From: Escherichia coli
Lineage (GTDB): Bacteria; Pseudomonadota; Gammaproteobacteria; Enterobacterales; Enterobacteriaceae
DNA: 64,000 bases
Direction: 5' to 3' (one strand)
Assembly: GCF_044324875.1 (NCBI RefSeq)
Contig: NZ_CP172185.1
Within the stretch, counting starts at the first letter, position 1. The number at the start of each line of letters is the position of its first letter. The position numbers and the translations under genes are program-made. The notes below the pieces were generated by a model. That model was not told where the DNA came from and did no database searches. It was given only the letters and a program-made list of their open reading frames with translations. Shown here one piece after another: positions 1 through 57,373 of this stretch.

Positions 1-1467
1 TTACTGGTATCAGAAATAGCGCCGTCTTTAACGTTGGTGATGGTACTGGTAGTATCTGTACCATGTGCCGCACTATATGCCTTTTTAAGGGAGTCCCATT
101 GTAACGTATTATTGTCCAGGCCCGTTAAGGCGTCGCCAACAGTGCCGAAAATACCACTTTTCAGCCTGTAATTTGGGGAAGTAACGACGCCTTGCGCATT
201 GACGGTAGCCCCCCCACCAAGATTGTCCGCTACTGACTTACTGATAGCATAAAGCTGTGATCCATTGATGGCATCAGTACTGGTAGTGCTGATATCACCT
301 GCTGCCATATTGACAATTTGTCGCTGAGCTGTTGTGTTACCCACAGAAACAGTATCCGCGTCAGTCGCTACAGAACCAGCACCCAGAGCAACTGAATTTT
401 TCCCTTGAGCACTGGCTTGAGCACCAATTGCAGTGCCATTTTCTAAACCGGCATAACTGCCTTGTCCAAGAGCAATAGCATTTACACCACCTGTAATACT
501 ACCATTACCCAGCGCGATAGCATTTGCGCCGTCAGCTTTATTCCCTTGACCGATGGCAATTGCGCCAGCCGCTACTGCCTGACTTTGATTGCCCAGAGCA
601 ATCGTGTTGTCGACATCTGCAATACTGCCGGAGCCCAACGCGATACTATTAAGTCCATTTGCCTCCGCGTTAGTACCAACTGCCGTCGCATTTTCAGCAG
701 CTTTGCTCTCTGCACCCATAGCAATCGCGTTTGCGGCGCTGGCGGCGGATTGTCTGCCGAATGCGAGGCTGTCTACGCCAGCTGCAGCACTGTTGCGGCC
801 TACTGCAATCGCGTTAGCTGCAGATGCGGCGCTACTTGCACCCAGCGCCATTGCATATTCTTTCGACGCATTAGCCGTGGCTCCGAGGGCGATACTCATA
901 ATTCCTAAGGCCTTGCTTTCACGTCCAAATGCGATGGCGTCATCAGCACCAGTCTCTGCGTAATCCCCTTGTGCAATAGAAAATTCACCTGTTGAGTTTG
1001 CATAACGACCAAGTGCGATTGAAAATCCACCCGTTGACGTTGCCGATGCACCTATAGCGAGGCTTCGCTCACCTGCTGAGGTAGTGTTAATCCCTAACGC
1101 CACTGATGCTTCGCCAAGCGAATGGGTCTTAGCGCCGAGGGCTGTTGACCACCTTCCGTCAGCAGTTGCGTGATAACCTACTGCGGTGCTGGAGCCACCC
1201 CCGGTGTCTGTAAAACTATTTGCTTTTACATCTTCACCGATAGCAACCCAGCCTGTTCCTGTTCCCTGGCCATAATTGACGCCCTGACCGTTGTCCCTTC
1301 CTGCCTGAGCCTGTACCCCAAACGACGACAACATTCCCCCAGCAACCAGAGCAGAAATTAACAGCTTACTGCGCCCGGATTTCTTGCCACGGCTCTTCGC
1401 CGTTTCGCTGGCAACGGTGTAACTGCCCGTCGCCGGATTCCAGATAACTTTAAATATTTTGTTCATT
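1..1467 (-). CDS. Trimeric autotransporter adhesin (YadA-like; UpaG/EhaG/SadA-type), N-terminal part only; C-terminus lies beyond the window start
   Basis: Minus-strand ATG at 1465-1467; translation begins [21 protein letters not shown] (extended autotransporter signal peptide) followed by many Gly/Ala/Ser-rich head repeats (SxALG, NAIAxG); reading frame stays open to position 1. Confidence 0.8.
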
Positions 1468-1509
1468 ATTGATGCTCTCTATTCCTTGATATAAGCGCAG
1501 AAGCTGCAT

Positions 1510-2193
1510 TTATTTTTTGTTTTTTCGCTGCCGAGTTTCAGCAGGTTGAACAGTGTCGAACTGGAGATTGTCCATATTGATGGACAACTTCAGATACTTC
1601 AGGTTATTAGGCGAAACGCCTTTTAATGTCAGATTAATGTCTTGCCATTGGCCAGGCATTAATTGCAGAGTGGAATTCATGGTGGTGTTGAAAAGTAATT
1701 GTTGCCACTTTGCCAGAGCTTTGGCATCGGTGGGTCTTTCATTGCCCCATGTCGCATGAAAGCCAATATTTGATACGGGAACGCTTAAAAGGTTAACCAG
1801 CGAAATACGAATAACACTGCCATTTTCAACCGCATCAATAGCCAGCACCCGGCCTGCCAAACCGACCGATCCGTTATTTAAAATGAAATATTGTGTTTGT
1901 GCTGGGTTAAATTCTGTAAAGACAAATTCGTCCTGCTTGTCTTTAACCGCTTTCACCACGCCAGCGAGCGTCTTGGTACTATTTATGACAGTAGTTTGTT
2001 GTTTTTCAAAATGTTCTATCTTTCGCTTATCGAGTTCCTGCTGTTTCTCAAGCGCCTCAATTTTGCTTTTTTGCAACTCTTGCTGTGTAACGAGGTCGTC
2101 GACCTTACTCGCTTTTTCAATATAGTCACACCCTGCCAATAAGCAGAGAGGCACTATTATTAACACGCTTAACAGTGTTTTCTTTAGGTTCAT
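1510..2193 (-). CDS. Lipoprotein with N-terminal coiled coil, SadB-like putative partner of the downstream adhesin
   Basis: Track ORF 227 aa; signal peptide with lipobox LLAGC; heptad-like Q/E/K-rich segment; stop 1510 lies 42 bp upstream of the adhesin start on the same strand. Confidence 0.6.
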   Translation of the reverse strand: MNLKKTLLSVLIIVPLCLLAGCDYIEKASKVDDLVTQQELQKSKIEALEKQQELDKRKIEHFEKQQTTVINSTKTLAGVVKAVKDKQDEFVFTEFNPAQTQYFILNNGSVGLAGRVLAIDAVENGSVIRISLVNLLSVPVSNIGFHATWGNERPTDAKALAKWQQLLFNTTMNSTLQLMPGQWQDINLTLKGVSPNNLKYLKLSINMDNLQFDTVQPAETRQRKNKK

Positions 2194-2750
2194 AGGATGA
2201 ATTCCTTTTCATAATCCCGATACAGTTGATAATTACGGCACAATCATTTTTTTATGAATGATTAGAGTGGAGCATATCCGACAAATAAATTTGTTAGAGA
2301 ATTTTTGTATTAATTGGTTGTGCGAATATGTTATTAAGTGTCAAACAATTTCGGTTTGTGGCCAATAATATTAATCGCGCGGATTTTAATGATCGGTGTC
2401 AATCAATGTCAAATGTTTCACCGGATAAAGATATAGCGGAGGGAAAGGTAAATATTCAGTTGAGTGATGTTTTATTGCGAAGTTTGCGATGCTGATAGAA
2501 AAATTTAAATAATTAATTATGTTTCAAGCATTGATATGCGGTAATTCATTGTTGATATTGATACATCATTATTTAATTTGTACCTGCTTTTCAGAATTTA
2601 GCCTGCTCCGAGCGCTCAGAAGTGTAGGTGGAGTTGAATATATAATGTTAAGAACGTTACAAATATTCGATCTCTGAAACAGGCTCCTGCATGTGCCAGC
2701 AGGAGCGAGTAAATCGTGAGTGGCTGTAATTACAGCGACGAGAAAGGAAC

Positions 2751-3113
2751 TTAAAACGCAGTCTTAGAGAACCCTGTCATCTCTTGCAGGCCCATTTCGC
2801 GGCCCAGCGCGGTCATTGGGTGCACAACGACCAGTCCGCGAACGCTCTTCTTCAGTTTGCCCATATCAGCTTGCTCTTTTTTAGTAATCGCGCGCTGGAA
2901 CGGCATCTTCATCAGCTTCTGTGCTTCCTTACTGAGTTTCTGGCTGTGAACTTCGCGCAGGCGAGCAATTTCTGCTTCCAGAGTGGCTTTCTCTTTTTCC
3001 AGTTCAGCATATTTGTCTGCGGCTTCAACCAGCGACAGATCGGCCTGCTGGTGGCGGATGGCGTCCAGACGATCGCTGAGACGTTTGATTTCGTTTTTTT
3101 CGACTTCTTTCAT
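2751..3113 (-). CDS. yibL: YibL, conserved ribosome-associated protein
   Basis: 120-aa ORF beginning [23 protein letters not shown]; position next to mtlR/yibT. Confidence 0.8.
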
Positions 3114-5353: not shown

Positions 5354-5383
5354 AGTATTAACCTTCATCAATGTTTTTACCCG

Positions 5384-5575
<192 letters not shown>

Positions 5576-5581
5576 ATTGGA

Positions 5582-7495
5582 TTACTTACGACCTGCCAGC
5601 AGTTCCAGCACTTCATCCACGCTGGTGGTGTGTGCCAGACGCTCGATGACAGACTCATCATCCAGTGCATTGGTCAGGCTGGTGATAACCTGAATGTGCT
5701 CGTTGTTACGGGCAGCAATACCAATCACCAGACGGGCAATGTCATCTTCTTCTTCACCGAAGCGCACGCCTTCCGGGTACTGGCAGAACACCACGCCCGT
5801 TTTCAGTACGCGATCTTTCGCTTCAACCGTACCGTGCGGTACCGCGATGGACTCACCCAGATAAGTCGGGGTCAGTTTTTCACGATCCAGCATCGCCTGA
5901 ACGTATTCCGGCTCAACGTAACCGCCTTTCACCAGCTGCTCGCCAGCAAAACGAATCGCTTCTTCTTTGGTGGCCGCTTTGCGACCGAGGAAGATGTTCT
6001 CCGCGCCCAGTTTGAACAGGTTAGCACTGGAATCGTCAAAGCTGTCTTTCAGACTGTCTTTCACTTTCACTTCGTTTTCAGTATGGCGCTGGGCAGCAAC
6101 CAGACGTTCGGTCAGGCTGGTGTACAGGCCGCTGTCGAGGAAGTTGGTCAGCGAAATATGCTGTGCCTGCGGAACCTGGCGCATAGCGCGTTCGGTCAGG
6201 TCACGGTGAGTGATGACCAGGTCCACATCTGGCGGCAGGTTGTTGATCGCGCTGTTAGTAACAGAAATCTGCGACAGACCTGCATCCTGAATTTTCTTAC
6301 GCAGCACACCTGCGCCCATCGCACTGGAACCCATACCGGCATCACAGGCAACGATGATTTTACGTACGTGGCTCAGGTCGTTAGTCACATCGCCCGCAGA
6401 CAGCGGGGACGCACCTTTAGACTCAGCTTTCATGTCCTGCATACGACGAGTTGCTGCTTCAATATCATCTTCTTCTTTCACTTTGCTGGTTTTCAGCAGA
6501 ATGGCAGAGACAACGAAGGAGACAGCCATCGCCGCACACACACCCGCGATGTTAGCGAAATAAGCACCTTTTGGTGTCATCGCCAGTACAGCAAGGATAG
6601 AACCCGGAGATGCCGGAGAAACCAGACCACCGCCCAGGATAGTCAGCGTGAACACGCCAGTCATACCACCGAGGATAACGGCCAGAATCAGACGCGGATT
6701 CATCAGCACATACGGGAAGTAGATTTCGTGGATACCGCCCAGGAAGTGGATGATTGCCGCACCGCCCGCAGACTGTTTAGCGCTACCACGACCAAAGAAC
6801 ATGTACGCCAGCAGCACGCCCATACCCGGACCTGGGTTAGCTTCAATCAGGAAGAAGATGGATTTACCCAGTTCATGGGACTGCTGAATGCCCAGCGGCG
6901 AGAAGATACCGTGGTTAATGGCGTTGTTGAGGAACAGGATTTTCGCCGGTTCAACAAAGATAGACGCCAGCGGCAGCATGTCATGGACAACCATGAAGTT
7001 AACGCCCGCAGCCAGCATTTTGGACAGGGCTTCAACAATCGGGCCAATGCCGAGGAATGCCAGAATAGCGAGGATCATCCCGATGATGCCTGCGGAGAAG
7101 TTATTCACCAGCATCTCAAAACCGGATTTGATCTTACCGTCTACCCAGCGGTCGAAGTGCTTAATGCACCAGCCACCCAGCGGACCTGCAATCATAGAAC
7201 CGAGGAACATCGGCATGTCTGCGCCGACGATAACGCCCATGGTGGTAATGGCACCGACTACGCCGCCACGTTCGCCGCCTACCAGCTTACCACCGGTATA
7301 ACCGATCAGCAGCGGCAGGAGATAAGTGATCATCGGCCCGACCAGCTTCGCCAGCGTTTCGTTCGGTAACCACCCTGTTGGAATAAATAACGCGGTGATG
7401 ATACCCCACGCGATAAACGCGCCGATATTTGGCATCACCATGTTGCTGAGGAAACGACCAAAGCTTTGCACTTTGATCTTAATATCGGATGACAT
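5582..7495 (-). CDS. mtlA: PTS mannitol-specific EIICBA component
   Basis: 637-aa ORF, MSSDIKIKVQSFGRFLSNMVMPNIGAF..., long membrane domain followed by EIIB and EIIA domains. Confidence 0.95.
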   Translation of the reverse strand: MSSDIKIKVQSFGRFLSNMVMPNIGAFIAWGIITALFIPTGWLPNETLAKLVGPMITYLLPLLIGYTGGKLVGGERGGVVGAITTMGVIVGADMPMFLGSMIAGPLGGWCIKHFDRWVDGKIKSGFEMLVNNFSAGIIGMILAILAFLGIGPIVEALSKMLAAGVNFMVVHDMLPLASIFVEPAKILFLNNAINHGIFSPLGIQQSHELGKSIFFLIEANPGPGMGVLLAYMFFGRGSAKQSAGGAAIIHFLGGIHEIYFPYVLMNPRLILAVILGGMTGVFTLTILGGGLVSPASPGSILAVLAMTPKGAYFANIAGVCAAMAVSFVVSAILLKTSKVKEEDDIEAATRRMQDMKAESKGASPLSAGDVTNDLSHVRKIIVACDAGMGSSAMGAGVLRKKIQDAGLSQISVTNSAINNLPPDVDLVITHRDLTERAMRQVPQAQHISLTNFLDSGLYTSLTERLVAAQRHTENEVKVKDSLKDSFDDSSANLFKLGAENIFLGRKAATKEEAIRFAGEQLVKGGYVEPEYVQAMLDREKLTPTYLGESIAVPHGTVEAKDRVLKTGVVFCQYPEGVRFGEEEDDIARLVIGIAARNNEHIQVITSLTNALDDESVIERLAHTTSVDEVLELLAGRK

Positions 7496-7638
7496 AAAAA
7501 CACCCCTTCTTATGTTTGCTGTCGCGCAGGCTGGAAGCCCGAGGTTTTTTGTTAATGTGGCGGCAGAGGTAGCCGGACCTTGTAGATACTGCGAAATCTG
7601 GCACTGAATCGGTTAACTGTCCAGTCGACGGCCTTTTG

Positions 7639-7815
7639 TGTGATATCGGTCACATAAATATAGGGGGTAGAGAGGTAATTGACGTGATGCTCATCACAAA
7701 ACTATTGTGTAAAAAAGCAACAAGGCGGCGATTTTCGCTAAAAATGGCATTTAAATGTGAGTAATGTCACATTTTTGTTTTGTTGGTTTGTTGAATCTTT
7801 GTGATCTGAATCACA
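7639..7815. promoter_or_regulatory. mtlA upstream control region with an array of CRP-type sites
   Basis: TGTGA-N6-TCACA matches at 7639-7654 (tgtgatatcggtcaca), 7683-7698 (cgtgatgctcatcaca), 7756-7771 (tgtgagtaatgtcaca), 7800-7815 (tgtgatctgaatcaca), plus a half-site at 7843-7847. Confidence 0.6.
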
Positions 7816-8031
7816 AGATATTTTCTTACGGCGTTCACCTGATGTGATCTACAGCATGTTATGCCCTCGTCATAAAATCGTTATGTAACTAAGCAACTCA
7901 TCACCTCTAAAAATTATTCTTTGGTGTTATGGCGAGAATCGCGAACCCGAATTATTGTCAAAATATCAGCCTGACTCCCTTCTGGCTGCCAGCCAAAAAA
8001 CAACACTGATAAACGTGAATCCGAGGCAGAT

Positions 8032-8394
8032 ATGTTTCTAAACTATTTCGCGTTGGGAGTGCTGATCTTCGTCTTTCTGGTGATTTTTTATGGAATCATC
8101 GCGATACATGACATCCCTTATCTGATTGCCAAAAAGCGCAACCACCCCCATGCCGACGCTATTCATACAGCGGGCTGGGTGAGCCTGTTTACTCTGCATG
8201 TTATCTGGCCGTTTCTGTGGATCTGGGCGACGCTCTATCAACCGGAGCGCGGCTGGGGCATGCAGTCACATGTTGCGTCGCAAGAGAAAGCGACTGACCC
8301 GGAAATCGCCGCACTTTCTGACCGAATTTCCCGGCTGGAGCACCAACTCGCCGCCGAGAAAAAGACTGACTATTCCACGTTCCCGGAGATCTAA
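8032..8394 (+). CDS. yibI: Small inner-membrane protein, DUF3302 family
   Basis: 120-aa [24 protein letters not shown] with N-terminal TM segment; GAGG-like SD upstream; paralog of yiaW at 17175. Confidence 0.85.
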
Positions 8395-8396
8395 AT

Positions 8397-9533
8397 ATGG
8401 ATCTATTGATTGTTTTAACTTACGTGGCGCTGGCGTGGGCGGTCTTTAAAATCTTCCGCATTCCGGTGAATCAGTGGACGCTGGCGACGGCGGCGCTGGG
8501 AGGCGTGTTTCTGGTGAGTGGTTTGATTTTGTTGATGAACTACAACCACCCTTACACTTTTACCGCGCAAAAGGCAGTGATAGCGATCCCCATCACGCCA
8601 CAGGTGACGGGAATTGTTACTGAAGTCACCGACAAAAATAATCAGCTTATTCAGAAGGGCGAGGTGCTTTTTAAGCTCGACCCGGTTCGTTACCAGGCGC
8701 GAGTTGACAGACTTCAGGCTGACCTGATGACGGCGACGCATAATATAAAGACGCTGCGCGCGCAGCTCACTGAAGCGCAGGCCAACACCACCCAGGTTTC
8801 AGCGGAGCGCGACCGTCTGTTTAAAAATTATCAACGTTACCTGAAAGGCAGCCAGGCGGCGGTGAATCCGTTCTCGGAACGTGACATCGACGATGCGCGG
8901 CAAAACTTCCTCGCGCAGGACGCGCTGGTGAAAGGCTCGGTGGCGGAGCAGGCGCAGATCCAGAGCCAGCTCGACAGTATGGTTAACGGCGAGCAATCGC
9001 AGATTGTGAGCTTAAGAGCGCAACTTACTGAAGCAAAATATAACCTTGAGCAGACTGTCATTCGCGCACCAAGCAATGGCTACGTTACTCAGGTACTGAT
9101 CCGCCCAGGTACATACGCAGCTGCCTTGCCGCTACGTCCGGTGATGGTTTTCATCCCCGAGCAAAAACGGCAAATTGTCGCCCAATTTCGGCAGAACTCG
9201 CTGTTACGTCTGAAACCCGGCGATGATGCGGAAGTGGTGTTTAACGCGCTACCTGGGCAGGTGTTCCACGGCAAACTGACCAGTATTTTACCTGTCGTGC
9301 CAGGCGGTTCGTATCAGGCGCAAGGGGTATTGCAATCATTAACGGTCGTGCCCGGCACGGACGGTGTGCTGGGAACCATTGAACTGGACCCCAACGATGA
9401 TATCGATGCCTTACCCGACGGCATCTACGCCCAGGTGGCGGTTTACTCCGACCATTTCAGCCATGTTTCGGTGATGCGAAAAGTGCTGCTAAGAATGACC
9501 AGCTGGATGCATTATCTTTATTTGGATCATTGA
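8397..9533 (+). CDS. yibH: HlyD-family membrane fusion protein (periplasmic adaptor)
   Basis: 378-aa ORF, N-terminal TM segment, long coiled-coil region (RLQADLMTA...), starts 3 bp after yibI; paralog of yiaV. Confidence 0.85.
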
Positions 9534-9603
9534 GACTTATATCACCTGTGTTTTGCGTGAGCCTGAGCCATACTGATATTTTTCCTCGCACAAAGGACTC
9601 GGC

Positions 9604-10212
9604 ATGAAACTCGTCGGTAGCTACACCAGCCCGTTTGTACGCAAACTTTCTATTCTGTTGTTAGAAAAGGGCATAACTTTCGAATTTATTAATGAACTGC
9701 CCTATAACGCGGACAACGGCGTGGCGCAATTTAACCCGTTAGGGAAAGTGCCGGTGCTGGTGACCGAAGAGGGCGAATGCTGGTTTGATTCGCCGATCAT
9801 CGCTGAATATATTGAATTAATGAATGTCGCTCCGGCGATGTTGCCGCGCGATCCGCTGGAGTCGTTGCGGGTGCGCAAAATTGAGGCACTGGCGGATGGC
9901 ATTATGGATGCCGGGCTGGTATCGGTGCGTGAACAGGCGCGTCCAGCGGCGCAGCAGTCTGAAGATGAATTGTTACGCCAGCGGGAGAAAATCAACCGCA
10001 GTCTGGATGTGCTGGAAGGATATCTGGTCGATGGCACACTCAAAACCGATACGGTCAATCTGGCGACTATCGCCATTGCCTGTGCCGTCGGATATCTCAA
10101 TTTCCGCCGCGTTGCGCCAGGTTGGTGTGTCGACCGCCCACACTTAGTCAAACTGGTCGAAAACCTGTTTAGCCGCGAAAGTTTTGCTCGCACCGAACCG
10201 CCAAAGGCTTGA
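9604..10212 (+). CDS. yibF: Glutathione S-transferase family protein
   Basis: 202-aa ORF with GST N-terminal thioredoxin-like fold motifs. Confidence 0.85.
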
Positions 10213-20499: not shown

Positions 20500-20610
20500 T
20501 GGCCTACGCTCTCGCACCGACTTGTAGGCCTGATAAGACGTGTTAAGCGTCGCATCAGGCAATGTGCACCCTACGGTGGATGCGGCGCGAGTGCCTTATC
20601 CAACCTACGG
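20500..20610. repeat. REP-type palindromic elements at the yiaT side of the accessory locus
   Basis: gtaggcctgataagacgtgttaagcgtcgcatcaggc and ggatgcggcgcgagtgccttatcc units. Confidence 0.6.
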
Positions 20611-22575
20611 ATGGCAATGCTTTTCCTCATTCACCCAGATCCGCATTTCGCCTTCACCCCGGTTGGCCCAGCTAAACCACGGGATAAACGTCAGAATTTG
20701 CGGCTGGCGTTTGGCTGGCGCGCTGTCGTAATGCCACAGCGGTTGCTGCTCTGGATTGCTCTGTTCATACCGGTAACCCGGTGCCTGGATTAAGATCTTA
20801 TGGCTGAACAATCCCTTACCTTCAAATGTCGTAAATGGCGCATCGGCGGGCAGCCACAGGTTATGCAGTGACTCGCCGTTGTCGGCCTGTTCCAGGCAAT
20901 ACACCAGCGGGCCGCGCTGAATCGCCACTTTTCCGGCGACGTGACGCACCAGAGGGTTACCGTAAACGCGGCGTACCGGCATCGGCAAAGTCAGATTCAG
21001 CGTATCGCCCTCCTGCCATTCGCGGGTAATGTGCAAATACCCTTTACGAATATCCTGCTCGACCTCTTCCCCATTCAATATGATCTGCGGCTGTGTGCAC
21101 CAGTCCGGCAGACGTAAAGCCAGCGTATGACGCACCGGCTGGGGCGATTCAACCGCAATTGTCACCTGTTCCTGCCACGGATAGTTCCCGCTAACCCGCA
21201 GGCGCAACGTGCCATTTTCTACCGGCACTTCCATGCTGTTTCCTGCGTAGATGTTGATATACAACGCATCTTCACGCGGCGTGTAGAGATAATGACCAAT
21301 CGAGGTCAGTACGCGGGCGATATTTGGCGGACAACAAGCGCAGCCAAACCAACGCTGGCGGAGCGGTTTAACGTGATCGTAGATATGGTTGAATTTCAGC
21401 GATTTTGGATGTACTTCCAGCGGATTCACATAGAAGAAATGTTTGCCATCCAGTGCCATGCCGCCGAGCACAGTGTTGTACAGCGCGCGCTCCATCACAT
21501 CGGCATATTGACTGTCGCCTTCCATTTCCAGCATTCGCCGGGCAAACATCATCAGGCCGATGGAGGCGCAACTTTCAGCGTATACCGTGTCATTCGGCAG
21601 ATCGTAATCGCTGCTGAACGCTTCACCGCTGCTTTGTGAGCCAATGCCGCCGGTAATATATAACTGACGCTGGGCCATATTGTTCCACAGCCGCAGGCAA
21701 TCCTGACGCTTGCTTTCATCGTGACTTAAACGCGCCAGATGTGCGACGCCAGTCATCAGGTAGACAAAGCGTACTGCATGTCCGATGGCGGTTTGTTGCT
21801 GTGCGATGGGCAAATGCGCCTGGCTGTAGGCTTTATCTTTCACCATCCACGCCGGGCCGTAGGTGTGCCAGTGCGAGGTCTGCCCGCGCTTTTCATATTC
21901 CTGGTCGTAATAGTGCGGTTGCGCACCACGCTGTTCGACAAAATAGTTCGTCAGCGCCAGGTAGCGCGGCTCTTCGGTCACTTCATACAGGCGCATTAGT
22001 GCCAGTTCAATTTCCGGGTGACCAGGATAACCGTGTAACTTACTTTCACCTGGACCAAATACGCTGTCGATATGATCGGCCAGACGGCAAACCACTTCCA
22101 GCAAGCGCCGCTTGCCCGTGGCCTGGAAGAAGGCGACTCCGGCTTCAATCAGATGACCGGCGCAGTAAAGTTCATGACACTCCGCCAGATTGCTCCAGCG
22201 TTCTTCGGGCGCTTTTACCGTAAAGTAAGTATTGAGATAGCCATCTTCGCACTGGGCGGAGGCGATCAGTTCAATCACCTCGTCAGCAGTTTTTTCCAGT
22301 TCGGCATCCGGCTTCTGGCACAGCGACCAGGCTACCGCTTCCAGCCATTTGGCGACGTCGCTGTCCTGAAACACCATCCCGTAAAATTCACCGTCTTGCA
22401 GTCCTGCGGCAATGCGAAAGTTTTCAATCGCATGGCTGGGTTCCGCTTCTGGGATACGATCGTTCAAGGCGTCCCACTGATAAGGAATCACCACATCGCG
22501 GACCAGTTGTTGGTACTGACCGAGGAACGGATCGCTGACCGTCAGTTTATGCAGATCGACTTCCGAAATGTTCAT
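20605..22575 (-). CDS. Glycoside hydrolase, GH127-like (DUF1680; beta-L-arabinofuranosidase-type)
   Basis: Track ORF trimmed to ATG 22573-22575, preceded by TAAGGAG SD that overlaps the upstream transporter stop; 656 aa; Cys-rich motif WFGCACCPPN typical of the family. Confidence 0.75.
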   Translation of the reverse strand: MNISEVDLHKLTVSDPFLGQYQQLVRDVVIPYQWDALNDRIPEAEPSHAIENFRIAAGLQDGEFYGMVFQDSDVAKWLEAVAWSLCQKPDAELEKTADEVIELIASAQCEDGYLNTYFTVKAPEERWSNLAECHELYCAGHLIEAGVAFFQATGKRRLLEVVCRLADHIDSVFGPGESKLHGYPGHPEIELALMRLYEVTEEPRYLALTNYFVEQRGAQPHYYDQEYEKRGQTSHWHTYGPAWMVKDKAYSQAHLPIAQQQTAIGHAVRFVYLMTGVAHLARLSHDESKRQDCLRLWNNMAQRQLYITGGIGSQSSGEAFSSDYDLPNDTVYAESCASIGLMMFARRMLEMEGDSQYADVMERALYNTVLGGMALDGKHFFYVNPLEVHPKSLKFNHIYDHVKPLRQRWFGCACCPPNIARVLTSIGHYLYTPREDALYINIYAGNSMEVPVENGTLRLRVSGNYPWQEQVTIAVESPQPVRHTLALRLPDWCTQPQIILNGEEVEQDIRKGYLHITREWQEGDTLNLTLPMPVRRVYGNPLVRHVAGKVAIQRGPLVYCLEQADNGESLHNLWLPADAPFTTFEGKGLFSHKILIQAPGYRYEQSNPEQQPLWHYDSAPAKRQPQILTFIPWFSWANRGEGEMRIWVNEEKHCHP

Positions 22576-22585
22576 CTTGTGCTCC

Positions 22586-23986
22586 TTAAGGCTGTACATG
22601 ACGCTGACGCAGGTCGCTAGCAATGCGTGACATCATAGGGTTATTGAGTTTGCAAAAGCGGATCGCCATCGCCAGCAGCAGGTGGAATAGCGCAGGCAGC
22701 AATGTTTCCATTGCTGTGATCCCGCCAAGCGAACTGGCGGTCTGGTTTTCCACGCCTGGCTGGTAGGCGACAAAAATAAACAGCAGGCTGATGATCCCGG
22801 CGCTGGAGGCCCAGGCCAGCTTGATGAAAAACAGATTGAAGGCGAAGTTCATGCCGGAAGAACGTACGCGGGTTTTCCACTCGCCGTAGTCATCGGCAAA
22901 GGCCATCAATGAGAAGTGCAGTGGCAATGTGAAGCCAAGAATCACGCCATTACCGAGGATCACCGCCAGCCACAGCGTTTGATAAGCCGGGCCAGAGGGC
23001 AGGAACCACATCAACACCGCCAGCGCAGCGAGGAGCAGGTTGGTGTAGTAGTAAATTTTGACGGTATCGAAACGCCGCGTTAATGGGCTGACAATCACCG
23101 AGCCGATAATGGAGGCGAAGGTGACCATGGTGAAGAACAGCGACGTGTAGCCCGTACTGCCTTGTAAGACGTAGGTAATGAAGTACATATACCCACCGCC
23201 GCGAATATTAAAGACGTTAATCAGCAGGAAAGACATGACCAGCATCAGCAGCAGTTGGTCGTTGTTTCGCAGCCCGGCAAGATGTTCGCGCAGGGTAAAT
23301 TTCCCCATTGTGGAGAGTGGTACCCGTTCACGAACCCAGAAGAAACAGCACAGGAACATCACCACAGCGATGGCGCACAGCACGCCGACGCCCAGTTGAT
23401 AGCCGCGCGCGGCATTACCCTGACCGAAGAGATCCACCATCCACGGTAAGCCTACCGAAACCAGAAATCCCGCTACACCGCAGAGAACGAATCGCCAGGA
23501 CTGGCAGGAGATCACTTCATTGTGGCGGGTGGTCATGGTGTTGATCAGCGCGCAGTACGGCACGTTGATGGCGGTATAACCGACTGAAAGGAGCAGGTAA
23601 GTGCCGAACGCCCAGGCGATTTTTACTCCCATGCTGGCATCTGGCACGGTGAACGTCAGGATGCCGATAATGCCGATGGGAATGGCAATCCATAACTGCC
23701 ACGGACGAAAGCGCCCCCAGTGACTTTGCGTCCGGTCGGCAATGACGCCCATCACCGGGTCGGAGATGGCATCAAACACGCGCAGTGCAATAAACAGCGT
23801 GCCGACCAGCGCCGGAGTTAAGCCAAAAACGTCGGTGTAGAAAAAGGTGAGAAAGTTCATGATCAGGCAAGTTATTACGGTGCCGCCTGCGTCACCCAGG
23901 CCGTAGCCTATTTTTTCCCGTACAGATAACGCATCGTCAATTTTACCTTTAGCGATATCAGCGGTAGTAATCGGTGTAGAGGTCAT
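22586..23986 (-). CDS. Glycoside-pentoside-hexuronide (GPH) family cation symporter
   Basis: 466-aa ORF, about 12 TM segments, motifs GYGLGDAG and [14 protein letters not shown]. Confidence 0.85.
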
Positions 23987-24211
23987 AGATATTCCTCGTA
24001 AATAGGGAGCAATTTTTAGTTTTATTGCAATGACCTGATTAATTCTGCCGTGAACGGGAATATCAACAAGGCGAGAAAAGAGTAAAAAAAGGTGACGATT
24101 CCGACCTGAATTTAAAAGTGTGAATTGGATCAGGTGAAATTAATGTTTTTGATTAATAATCAAAAGGTAATGTGTTTGATCATTAATGAATAAGCGGGAA
24201 ATTACATATCA

Positions 24212-25027
24212 ATGCTCGAATTATCCATGACGTTACCGATTAAAGTGCAAAATGGTGGATTATTTATTTCCCGTGGCGTAGGGAGGCATCCGGCAAGGCG
24301 GCTGGAGTCATGGGAAATTATCTTTGTCGAAAAAGGTCGATTAGCGATTCAGGAAGAAGAGCGGATATTTCTGGTCGATGCGGGAGAGAGTTTATTACTC
24401 TGGCCGAACCGACAGCATGTTGGGGTAGAGGATTTTCCCGCCGATCTCAAATTTTACTGGCTGCATTTTGAGGTTAAAGCGCCGGACAACGACCCGCGCT
24501 GGCTCACTCATCTTAGCGTGCCGCAACAAACAAAGGTTGCCGATCGGCAGGCGCTGGTGGCCCTGTTTCGCCAGTTCTTAAGCGAACAGGAAAAGCATCA
24601 ACGCACTCCGGCGCTGGAGTTTATTGTGCTGCTGATTTTGCAGCAACTCACCCGTGACGCGCGTCTTGATGAACAGGCCGATGCCGCAGGTACCACGCTT
24701 GCCTGGAAAGCGCAGAAACTGATCCGCACGCAATATCATCGCCCGCTTTCCACGGCGCTTTTAGCCCGCGAGCTGTACTGCAATGCCGATTATCTTGGGC
24801 GCGTCTACCGGCGGGTGTTTCATCTGACGTTAACAGAAGCAATTCATCGCCAGCGAGTGCGCGAAGCCGAAAAGCTGTTAATTAGCGAAGCGCGATCGCT
24901 CACTGAAGTGGCTGCGTTGTGCGGGTTTAATGACGTTGGCTATTTCCGACAGATTTTTCGCAAACACACCGGTTTAACGCCAGCTGCGTGGAAGCGACGT
25001 TACAGCAAGGAACATATCAATTCGTAG
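24212..25027 (+). CDS. AraC/XylS-family transcriptional regulator (cupin sensor plus HTH)
   Basis: 271-aa ORF divergent from the symporter; C-terminal HTH region (TEVAALCGFNDVGYFRQIFRKHTG). Confidence 0.85.
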   Translation: MLELSMTLPIKVQNGGLFISRGVGRHPARRLESWEIIFVEKGRLAIQEEERIFLVDAGESLLLWPNRQHVGVEDFPADLKFYWLHFEVKAPDNDPRWLTHLSVPQQTKVADRQALVALFRQFLSEQEKHQRTPALEFIVLLILQQLTRDARLDEQADAAGTTLAWKAQKLIRTQYHRPLSTALLARELYCNADYLGRVYRRVFHLTLTEAIHRQRVREAEKLLISEARSLTEVAALCGFNDVGYFRQIFRKHTGLTPAAWKRRYSKEHINS

Positions 25028-35723: not shown

Positions 35724-35822
35724 GCCGGATGCGGCTAAAACGCCTTATCCGGCCTACAAATTCTACCAAATTCAATATATTGCAGAAATCATGTAGGCCT
35801 GATAAGCGTAGCGCATCAGGCA
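35724..35822. repeat. REP-type palindromic elements between ysaA and avtA
   Basis: gccggatgcggctaaaacgccttatccggcctac ... gtaggcctgataagcgtagcgcatcaggc. Confidence 0.6.
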
Positions 35823-54421: not shown

Positions 54422-54673
54422 CGCTAAATAATAGAGCAACCTTTAATAATCTTCTGCTGAATAAAGATTGTCTCATATATTAATTTTATGAGATTTTTTT
54501 AGGATTATATCAAGGAGAAGAAACGAACTTATTAAGCTAGAATAGCCACGGGTGCTTGAGACTGTTTGTCTCAGGTATTCACCGAAAGGCAGACAGAGAA
54601 AAGCCCCACCTGACTATAAATCAAAGTGTACTGCACCCATTTTGTTGGACGATGAAATGGAATAGCCCCTGAT

Positions 54674-55195
54674 ATGTCAAAGCCAAAATACCCTTTTGAA
54701 AAGCGCCTTGAAGTCGTGAATCACTACTTCACTACTGATGATGGTTACAGGATCATCTCGGCACGTTTTGGTGTCCCCCGAACCCAGGTCAGGACATGGG
54801 TTGCCCTCTATGAAAAACATGGAGAAAAAGGTTTAATTCCCAAACCTAAAGGTGTTAGTGCTGATCCTGAGTTGCGTATTAAGGTCGTGAAAGCTGTGAT
54901 CGAGCAGCACATGTCCCTTAATCAGGCTGCTGCTCACTTTATGCTTGCTGGTAGTGGTTCTGTAGCCAGGTGGCTGAAGGTTTATGAAGAGCGCGGAGAA
55001 GCTGGTTTACGCGCGCTCAAGATTGGCACCAAAAGAAACATTGCAATATCAGTTGATCCAGAAAAAGCGGCATCAGCATTGGAGCTGTCAAAAGACCGAC
55101 GCATTGAGGATCTTGAAAGGCAAGTTCGATTTCTTGAAACGCGGCTTGTGTATCTAAAAAAGCTGAAAGCCTTAGCTCATCCCACGAAAAAGTGA
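54674..55195 (+). CDS. insJ: IS150 transposase OrfA (HTH)
   Basis: 173-aa ORF MSKPKYPFEKRLEVVNHYF...; slippery heptamer A-AAA-AAG at 55156-55162 in frame near its 3-prime end. Confidence 0.9.
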   Translation: MSKPKYPFEKRLEVVNHYFTTDDGYRIISARFGVPRTQVRTWVALYEKHGEKGLIPKPKGVSADPELRIKVVKAVIEQHMSLNQAAAHFMLAGSGSVARWLKVYEERGEAGLRALKIGTKRNIAISVDPEKAASALELSKDRRIEDLERQVRFLETRLVYLKKLKALAHPTKK

Positions 55196-56455: not shown

Positions 56456-56827
56456 ATGAATAAACTGCTTTTACTGTTGATAATGCTCTATCAACGACAT
56501 CTTTCTCCTCGCAAAGGATACCGCTGTGCTTACAGTGTGTTGTACCAAACGCAGGGATGTTCGGGAGCAGTCAAAGAGATTATTCAACAGAAAGGTGTTA
56601 TTGCAGGCTGGGGCGAGATACGTCAGCGTTTTGCAGATTGCCGACTTGCGGCACAGACAATCAGGCAGAAGCAACACCTGAACGAGGTAATACGTAAAAA
56701 GAAGAATAATAATTGTGATTGTTCCGGGTGCGATGGTGCGGTCTGTCGTGATTGCGACATTCCGGTGCCGGATCTGGATTGTTCCTGGGACTGTTCTTCT
56801 CTACATATAAAGCGTTTTTTCCAATAA
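56456..56827 (+). CDS. YidD-like (DUF37/hemolytic domain) protein with Cys-rich C-terminal tail
   Basis: 123-aa ORF; N-terminal LYQRHLSP...C...KGVIAGWGEIRQRFADC resembles the YidD family pattern; C-terminal CDCSGCDGAVCRDCD cluster. Confidence 0.5.
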   Translation: MNKLLLLLIMLYQRHLSPRKGYRCAYSVLYQTQGCSGAVKEIIQQKGVIAGWGEIRQRFADCRLAAQTIRQKQHLNEVIRKKKNNNCDCSGCDGAVCRDCDIPVPDLDCSWDCSSLHIKRFFQ

Positions 56828-56852
56828 AAAAATCCCCGCCAAATGGCAGGGA
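56826..56852 (-). terminator. Rho-independent terminator of cspA
   Basis: On the minus strand: stem tccctgcc / ggcgggga followed by ttttttt, about 30 nt after the cspA stop. Confidence 0.55.
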
Positions 56853-56880
56853 TCTTAGATTCTGTGCTTTTAAGCAGAGA

Positions 56881-57093
56881 TTACAGGCTGGTTACGTTAC
56901 CAGCTGCCGGGCCTTTAGCGCCGCTTTCGATGGTGAAGGACACTTTCTGACCTTCGTCCAGAGATTTGTAACCATCGTTCTGGATAGCAGAGAAGTGTAC
57001 GAACACGTCTTTAGAGCCATCGTCAGGAGTGATGAAGCCGAAGCCTTTGTCAGCGTTGAACCATTTTACGATACCAGTCATTTTACCGGACAT
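56881..57093 (-). CDS. cspA: Major cold-shock protein CspA
   Basis: 70 aa [38 protein letters not shown] with RNP1/RNP2 motifs. Confidence 0.95.
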
Positions 57094-57373
57094 AGTGTAT
57101 TACCTTTAATAATTAAGTGTGCCTTTCGGCGATATGGCGTGCTTTACAGATTTTGAAGCGTTAAAGGAATGTGCACTACGAGGGGTATCAACGATAACTC
57201 TTGAAGGGACTTGCCTTACTACACTGCTTTAATGGTCTGTACGTCAAACCGTTGATGTGCATTAAGCCACGCATTGGCGGGTGATGCAACAATTATTTTT
57301 CATATTTATGATTAATCGGTTGGAAAACGGTCCTGTCATCAGGACCGTAAACAGCAATAAAGTGGATAAAAGT

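Follow-up and report, generated by a model that had tools for sequence, protein, structure and literature searches.

The left end of a 64,000-nucleotide stretch of Escherichia coli DNA (contig NZ_CP172185.1; hereafter the window) very probably carries, on the minus strand, the 5′ end of a chromosomal trimeric autotransporter adhesin (TAA) gene that is the positional orthologue of upaG, ehaG and sadA. The window covers 488 codons of this gene, the C-terminal three-quarters of which, including the membrane anchor, lie beyond position 1; as judged from sequence, the gene appears intact in the source strain over the 488 visible codons, with the remainder beyond the window. It is best annotated as a partial upaG/ehaG-type gene with a sadB partner, and the open reading frames (ORFs) antisense to it are to be ignored. 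Published work already covers the gene family and its variability, the chromosomal locus, the partner gene and the lack of the adhesin gene in K-12, and RefSeq already includes the present allele from hundreds of genomes. The locus is a classic example of a surface adhesin that varies between strains, of little significance apart from its correct annotation.

The window opens inside a type Vc adhesin gene

A minus-strand frame starting at an ATG (reverse complement of positions 1464–1466) remains open for 488 full codons and a further 2 nt, to the window edge. The initial annotation had ended the gene at 1467 and counted about 489 N-terminal codons; both figures are corrected here, position 1467 being one base too far and the frame read from it full of stops. 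Its reading of the frame as a partial trimeric autotransporter adhesin is borne out by Pfam, which finds ESPR, YadA_head and YadA_stalk, and by the PDB, in which heads and necks of such adhesins are the best matches. NCBIfam returns TAA models only (Ata, BimA, EmaA and YadA), all scoring under their full-length cut-offs, as a fragment would be expected to. An ESPR signal peptide followed by a passenger of YadA-like head repeats, neck and coiled-coil stalk places the product among type Vc autotransporters, and mtl-side synteny, a sadB-type gene upstream and homology along the visible length place it in the UpaG/EhaG/SadA group.

The extended signal peptide that had been claimed is recovered by Pfam (Table 1), and the AxA rule predicts cleavage after VQAQA. 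The head that follows is covered by 16 overlapping YadA_head matches (aa 90–377). Residue identity at a lag of 14 within aa 87–380 reaches 37.5%, compared with 11.8 ± 1.8% in 5,000 shuffles (z = 14.6), and a weaker 7-residue sub-period is also present. Column counts place a one-residue slip in the repeat register near aa 254, ruling out a perfect register across all 21 repeats. With alanine at 23%, glycine at 17% and serine at 10% of aa 55–380, the repeats are degenerate and rich in these three residues as first described, although the ‘dozens’ claimed reduce to about 21 units unless 7-residue half-units are counted. Tandem Repeats Finder detected no DNA-level repeats in positions 1..1500 and the longest direct DNA repeat in the head is 27 nt at 78% identity; the head repeats are visible at the protein level only.

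Structural matches follow the same order along the fragment. The head of Burkholderia BpaC (PDB 7o23; E = 8.8e-29) aligns with aa 89–413 and that of Yersinia YadA (1p9h) matches the fragment with E = 8.7e-14. Both share the 14-residue head repeat, a left-handed parallel β-roll and then a neck, but they come from unrelated organisms and loci, differ in length and have no SadB partner, and are relatives at the family level only. The neck is matched by Pfam YadA_stalk at aa 383–425 (E = 6.4e-09), PDB entries 2yo0, 3ntn and 4usx align at the neck and first stalk segment, and 2yo2 and 2yny align with aa 404–457. The GCN4-fused fibre fragments 2yo0, 2yo2, 2yny, 2yo3 and 2ynz, which we take to be SadA-derived constructs, match the neck and stalk modules. 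Modules related to the first stalk insert recur at aa 1068–1171 of a 1,751-aa homologue and at aa 1099–1202 of UpaG, with 51% identity.

Table 1 Features of the adhesin locus and of the stalk repeats of its relatives
Feature	Coordinates	Strand	Basis
Trimeric autotransporter adhesin gene, 5′ part	1..1466	-	Open frame; Pfam ESPR, YadA_head, YadA_stalk
First stalk insert domain, aa 426–488 (LGGGATV...SAAHGTD..ITNV)	3..191	-	PDB, internal matches
Neck and first coiled-coil stalk segment, aa 381–425 (...DAINGSQLY)	192..326	-	Pfam YadA_stalk, PDB
Head, aa 87–380, with about 21 degenerate YadA-type repeats of 14 residues	327..1208	-	Pfam YadA_head, 14-residue period
Extended signal peptide, aa 1–55	1302..1466	-	Pfam ESPR aa 1–48, E = 3.7e-16
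Antisense ORF of 148 aa in codon register with the adhesin, judged non-genic	462..908	+	ORF list
Antisense ORF of 124 aa, judged non-genic	589..963	+	ORF list
Spacer from lipoprotein stop to adhesin ATG, 43 bp	1467..1509	-	Read from sequence
SadB-type lipoprotein gene, 227 aa	1510..2193	-	PDB 4c47, lipobox, RefSeq names of homologues
AT-rich region upstream of the operon, 29–35% GC	2194..2750	-	Composition profile
234-bp stalk repeat array, 4.2 copies (outside the window)	7869..8849 of extracted locus
234-bp stalk repeat array, 5.0 copies (outside the window)	6671..7849 of extracted locus

Near-identical relatives are full length and differ in stalk repeats

Two relatives extend the view beyond the window. 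The gene of strain 50579417, which encodes 1,751 aa (WP_105375197.1), differs from the fragment at 3 of 1,466 nt and 2 of 488 residues, and that of GMF054, which encodes 1,830 aa and whose genome is the closest over 25 kb (99.2%), at 10 of 1,466 nt; neither contains an internal stop. Both proteins end in ...GRWVYKLQGS...GAGIQW. In the 1,751-aa protein, Pfam YadA_anchor is found within the last 599 residues (E = 1.5e-19), together with further stalk and head modules, and the 1,830-aa protein has the same C-terminal sequence as this anchor-bearing homologue. The initial annotation had named the lack of a C-terminal YadA-type anchor as the result that would overturn it; these relatives, 3 to 10 nt away from the fragment over the shared 1,466 nt, do carry the anchor.

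The relatives carry a tandem 234-bp (78-aa) stalk unit whose copies are 93–95% identical, present 4.2 times in the 1,751-aa protein and 5.0 times in the 1,830-aa protein. As the two share the same head allele, their 79-aa difference in length is essentially one more 78-aa stalk unit. Repeat-unit analysis for recombination-driven length variation had been proposed; we reject the head repeats as the driver of such variation because neither Tandem Repeats Finder nor the direct-repeat search found them at the DNA level, and the 234-bp units outside the window take their place.

These data also bear on whether the gene could be a remnant in the source strain, with an intact 5′ end and a break downstream of the window by frameshift, stop, repeat-mediated deletion or insertion sequence. 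The window stops after codon 488 and any break would lie beyond it, stalk repeats as similar as those of the relatives are prone to rearrangement, and the whole adhesin locus has been lost in 23% of complete genomes. Yet every one of the 488 visible codons is open, both close relatives are intact with their anchors, and the genome matches listed are all annotated as YadA-like family proteins. We consider a remnant improbable and favour the 5′ end of a presumably intact upaG/ehaG/sadA orthologue.

The gene lies at the upaG/ehaG/sadA locus with a sadB partner

Gene order in the window is mtlA, mtlD, mtlR, yibT, yibL, lipoprotein gene, adhesin gene. The mtl side is seen directly, whereas the lld side is known from homologous loci only: yibL, a lipoprotein gene, the adhesin gene and lldP follow one another in all four examined, namely those of strain 50579417, GMF054, CFT073 (RefSeq gene upaG, 1,778 aa) and O157:H7 Sakai (ECs_4480, ‘adhesin’, 1,588 aa). 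Grin et al. 2014 (PMC3953254) described a sadBA operon between the mannitol (mtl) and L-lactate (lld) operons in Escherichia, Salmonella and Shigella. The adhesin gene goes by the name upaG in uropathogenic strains, ehaG in EHEC and sadA in Salmonella, and the positional orthology of UpaG/EhaG with SadA has been described (PMC12525524, PMC7247748, PMC11054257).

A megablast search with positions 1..2300 found matches in 4,147 of 5,426 complete E. coli genomes, all of them chromosomal and none on a plasmid. The best matches (99.3%) are annotated ‘YadA-like family protein’ together with ‘DUF3251’ or ‘SadB/YajI family lipoprotein’. An identical locus was not found in this 5,426-genome collection, the highest identity in it being 99.3% across 2.3 kb and 99.2% across 25 kb.

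The claimed absence from the K-12 position is confirmed: in MG1655, yibL directly adjoins lldP, and both the lipoprotein gene and the adhesin gene are missing. Homology to K-12 ends at the yibL stop codon (window position 2750) and restarts 22 bp beyond the adhesin stop. This K-12-type yibL–lldP junction occurs in 1,263 of the 5,426 complete genomes (23%), and in K-12 a 5-kb deletion has been reported to take out both the sadB and sadA genes (PMC3953254). We also observed that in K-12 (extracted locus 6030..6124) 95 bp take the place of about 6.6 kb and, at the blastn threshold applied, show no match to either flank.

The lipoprotein gene immediately upstream encodes a lipobox (LLAG-C22) with Asp at +2, an inner-membrane retention signal. 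Residues 23–227 of the product match PDB 4c47, an ‘inner membrane lipoprotein’, with E = 1.3e-70; this entry is the SadB structure of Grin et al. 2014 (PMC3953254). The product is 88% identical to that of the CFT073 gene upstream of upaG, and RefSeq names its homologues ‘SadB/YajI family lipoprotein’ or ‘DUF3251’; searches of Pfam and NCBIfam matched no family. Its assignment as a SadB-type lipoprotein is based on the PDB match and the RefSeq names. Within the spacer that separates the two genes, AAGGAATAGAGAG is a likely ribosome-binding region.

Upstream of the pair, 557 bp separate yibL from the lipoprotein gene. A promoter scan of the minus strand gives a score of 11/12 to one strong sigma-70-like site at 2412..2383 (TTGACA-18-TAAAAT), a match to the consensus and no more. 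Neither the Rfam nor the tRNA scan had a match in or close to positions 1..2800.

The operon resembles that of Salmonella enterica (SadA/SadB; STM3691, STM3690), in which the lipoprotein gene also comes first and which also lies between mtl and lld; its sadB–sadA spacer measures 44 bp, compared with 43 bp here (PMC3953254). SadA is shorter, at 1,461 aa, and has been reported not to bind extracellular matrix proteins (PMC11054257). Our link to Salmonella draws on the SadB structure match, the matches to the GCN4-fused fragments and the literature.

Because YadA_head, neck and ESPR are common to all TAAs, domain content alone cannot separate the gene from one for another YadA-like protein, such as an Eib immunoglobulin-binding protein encoded on a prophage, Saa or an unrelated TAA, and EibD (PDB 2xqh) does give a weak match (E = 2.9e-4); such an identity is nevertheless refuted as far as synteny allows, and we give it almost no weight, as the chromosomal position is that of upaG and ECs_4480, the signal peptide is identical to that of CFT073 UpaG over the first 44 residues, the genome matches are without exception chromosomal, a sadB gene lies directly upstream in a pairing reported only for enterobacterial sadBA operons (PMC3953254), and Eib and Saa proteins have 392–535 aa (PMC12525524) against the 1,751–1,830 aa of the close relatives.

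The head is an allele distinct from UpaG and EhaG

The fragment was compared with the two characterised E. coli proteins, a comparison that the initial annotation had proposed and that supports its assignment: both align collinearly from residue 1, UpaG at 56% identity (E = 7e-151) and EhaG at 61% (E = 5e-167). CFT073 UpaG (c4424; WP_001033292.1) occupies the same chromosomal slot and has the same order of signal peptide, YadA head, neck and stalk module. The 56% identity applies to the N-terminal 488 residues, over which the two proteins differ by indels of one 14-residue repeat; at the nucleotide level, identity is 98% in the signal-peptide region and 51–66% across the head. Among full-length proteins the 1,751-aa one is closest to the window gene; it is 76% identical to UpaG overall and about 76% identical to it in the stalk and anchor part.

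The Sakai protein ECs_4480, which we take to be EhaG, its length of 1,588 aa fitting that protein, matches the window gene in slot and architecture. Identity is 61% over the N-terminal 485 residues, and its stalk and anchor are about 78% identical to those of the 1,751-aa homologue. EhaG has a shorter head and stalk, and the head sequences have diverged.

A head-only search with positions 1..1300 found 454 of 5,426 complete genomes (8%) in which at least 80% of the length of this head is matched; the band of at least 99% identity in the same search contains 450 genomes. In about 150 further genomes the match, at 98%, covers positions 1..909 and leaves out 910..1300; in ST131-type genomes it is confined to 661..909, at 85%. 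Carriers of this head allele include multidrug-resistant extraintestinal lineages. These partial matches suggest recombination breakpoints inside the head, for example near position 909, where the roughly 150 genomes change allele. By sequence comparison, the head is an allele distinct from both characterised proteins. Its distribution across strains is mosaic, a pattern that recombination-driven diversification of a surface-exposed antigen would be expected to leave. The description of the gene as strain-variable holds, both in its mosaic head alleles and in the frequency of the K-12-type junction. ‘Extensive sequence variation’ of upaG and divergence between the UpaG and EhaG passenger domains have been reported (PMC7247748).

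What this divergence might mean for function can be framed by the two known proteins, UpaG being associated with bladder cells and EhaG with intestinal cells; a difference in cell tropism between them has been described (PMC7247748). Function is carried over here by analogy from UpaG and EhaG, and the ligand specificity of this head may differ from that of UpaG; specificity cannot be inferred directly because the characterised heads are only 56–61% identical. One could go further and propose that the allele represents a third functional class of UpaG/EhaG adhesin, with a receptor or tissue specificity that could differ from both, a suggestion that we regard as tentative and, on balance, doubtful. 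Were it correct, the mosaic alleles would record recombinational exchange of binding modules. UpaG has also been proposed as a vaccine antigen. Since the head is the exposed tip and is this dissimilar to its UpaG and EhaG counterparts, antibodies against CFT073 UpaG may miss strains with this allele.

Antisense open reading frames reflect codon composition

The two plus-strand ORFs antisense to the head had been called spurious products of its repetition. They are present at exactly the positions given and are spurious, but repetition is not the cause. When the codons of the adhesin fragment were shuffled, keeping its amino-acid and codon composition while destroying the order of the repeats, the open runs in the two antisense frames averaged 101 and 113 codons and reached at most 234 and 309. 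A run as long as the 153 codons seen in the codon-aligned frame arose in 5% of shuffles, and one as long as the 124 codons of the other frame in 32%. The fragment is poor in TTA, CTA and TCA codons (6, 0 and 9, respectively). The antisense ORFs are by-products of codon composition and not of repetition itself.

That one or both are real overlapping antisense genes, an idea for which one could cite their lengths of 148 and 124 codons and the position of the 153-codon run at the 5% tail of the null, has next to no credibility: the lengths lie within the shuffled range, the codon-aligned frame is not conserved, its open run shrinking to 71 codons in upaG and 57 in ehaG, the predicted products are low-complexity strings of Ala, Cys, Ser and Leu with a TTG start, and mtlA in the same window has a 595-codon antisense open run, such ORFs being common by-products here.

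Proposed assembly and function of the adhesin

The steps set out below are drawn from the full-length genes nearly identical to this one and from the literature on the family; what is said of function is taken from reviews and from Grin et al. 2014. The sadB and adhesin genes would be co-transcribed, and H-NS is probably their silencer, acting through the AT-rich region upstream; the derepression of upaG on hns deletion (PMC12525524) fits the composition of that region. The protein would be exported by Sec, aided by its extended signal peptide. The remaining residues, about 1,260–1,340 of them, would form a long coiled-coil stalk, repeated insert domains and a terminal YadA-type anchor. Three anchors, each contributing four β-strands, would together form a single 12-stranded outer-membrane barrel inserted by BAM (PMC5670179), and the three passenger chains would pass outward through it. 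Formation of a homotrimer on the cell surface has been shown for UpaG and SadA (PMC3953254, PMC5670179). The trimeric inner-membrane lipoprotein SadB, which enhances display of SadA, would likewise improve surface display here (PMC3953254).

The result would be a long trimeric fibre with the variable repeat head at its tip. This tip is expected to bind extracellular matrix and epithelial cells and to promote cell aggregation and biofilm formation, as for UpaG and EhaG, which have been reported to bind fibronectin, laminin and epithelial cells and to mediate autoaggregation and biofilm formation (PMC12525524, PMC7247748). Of the earlier label ‘virulence/biofilm factor’, the biofilm part is upheld for UpaG and EhaG by reviews, whereas virulence is a soft label: deletion of upaG produced no significant drop in mouse bladder colonisation (review, PMC12525524).

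Other features of the window

Several observations concern the rest of the window. A 628-aa ORF on the plus strand (5483..7369) runs antisense across nearly all of mtlA (5582..7495, minus strand), its 595 stop-free codons being codon-aligned with that gene; in length it far exceeds the ORFs antisense to the adhesin head. The 228-bp mtlA–mtlD spacer (5354..5581) contains REP-type palindromes such as GCCGGATGCGGCGT/ACGCCTTATCCGGC and lets the mtlD ORF run 61 codons upstream of its real start. The same spacer is shortest in strain 50579417 and Sakai (94 bp in each), almost as long as in the window in K-12 (229 bp) and longest in CFT073 (419 bp), so that its REP content varies between strains. At 9533..9604, between yibH (8397..9533) and yibF (9604..10212), the window has no Rhs element; in GMF054 and Sakai an Rhs core gene occupies this interval, accompanied in GMF054 by an immunity gene. 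A three-gene block at 20605..25027, between yiaT and the sgb/yia operon, encodes a glycoside hydrolase of family 127, an MFS transporter and an AraC-type regulator; it is absent from the corresponding stretch of CFT073 and is also found in Sakai and GMF054. Finally, three RNA features score above the Rfam gathering threshold: the ES036 sRNA at 35758..35800 (plus strand), a sok antitoxin RNA of a hok/sok-type locus at 54550..54703 (plus strand) and a cspA thermoregulator leader at 56826..57253 (minus strand).
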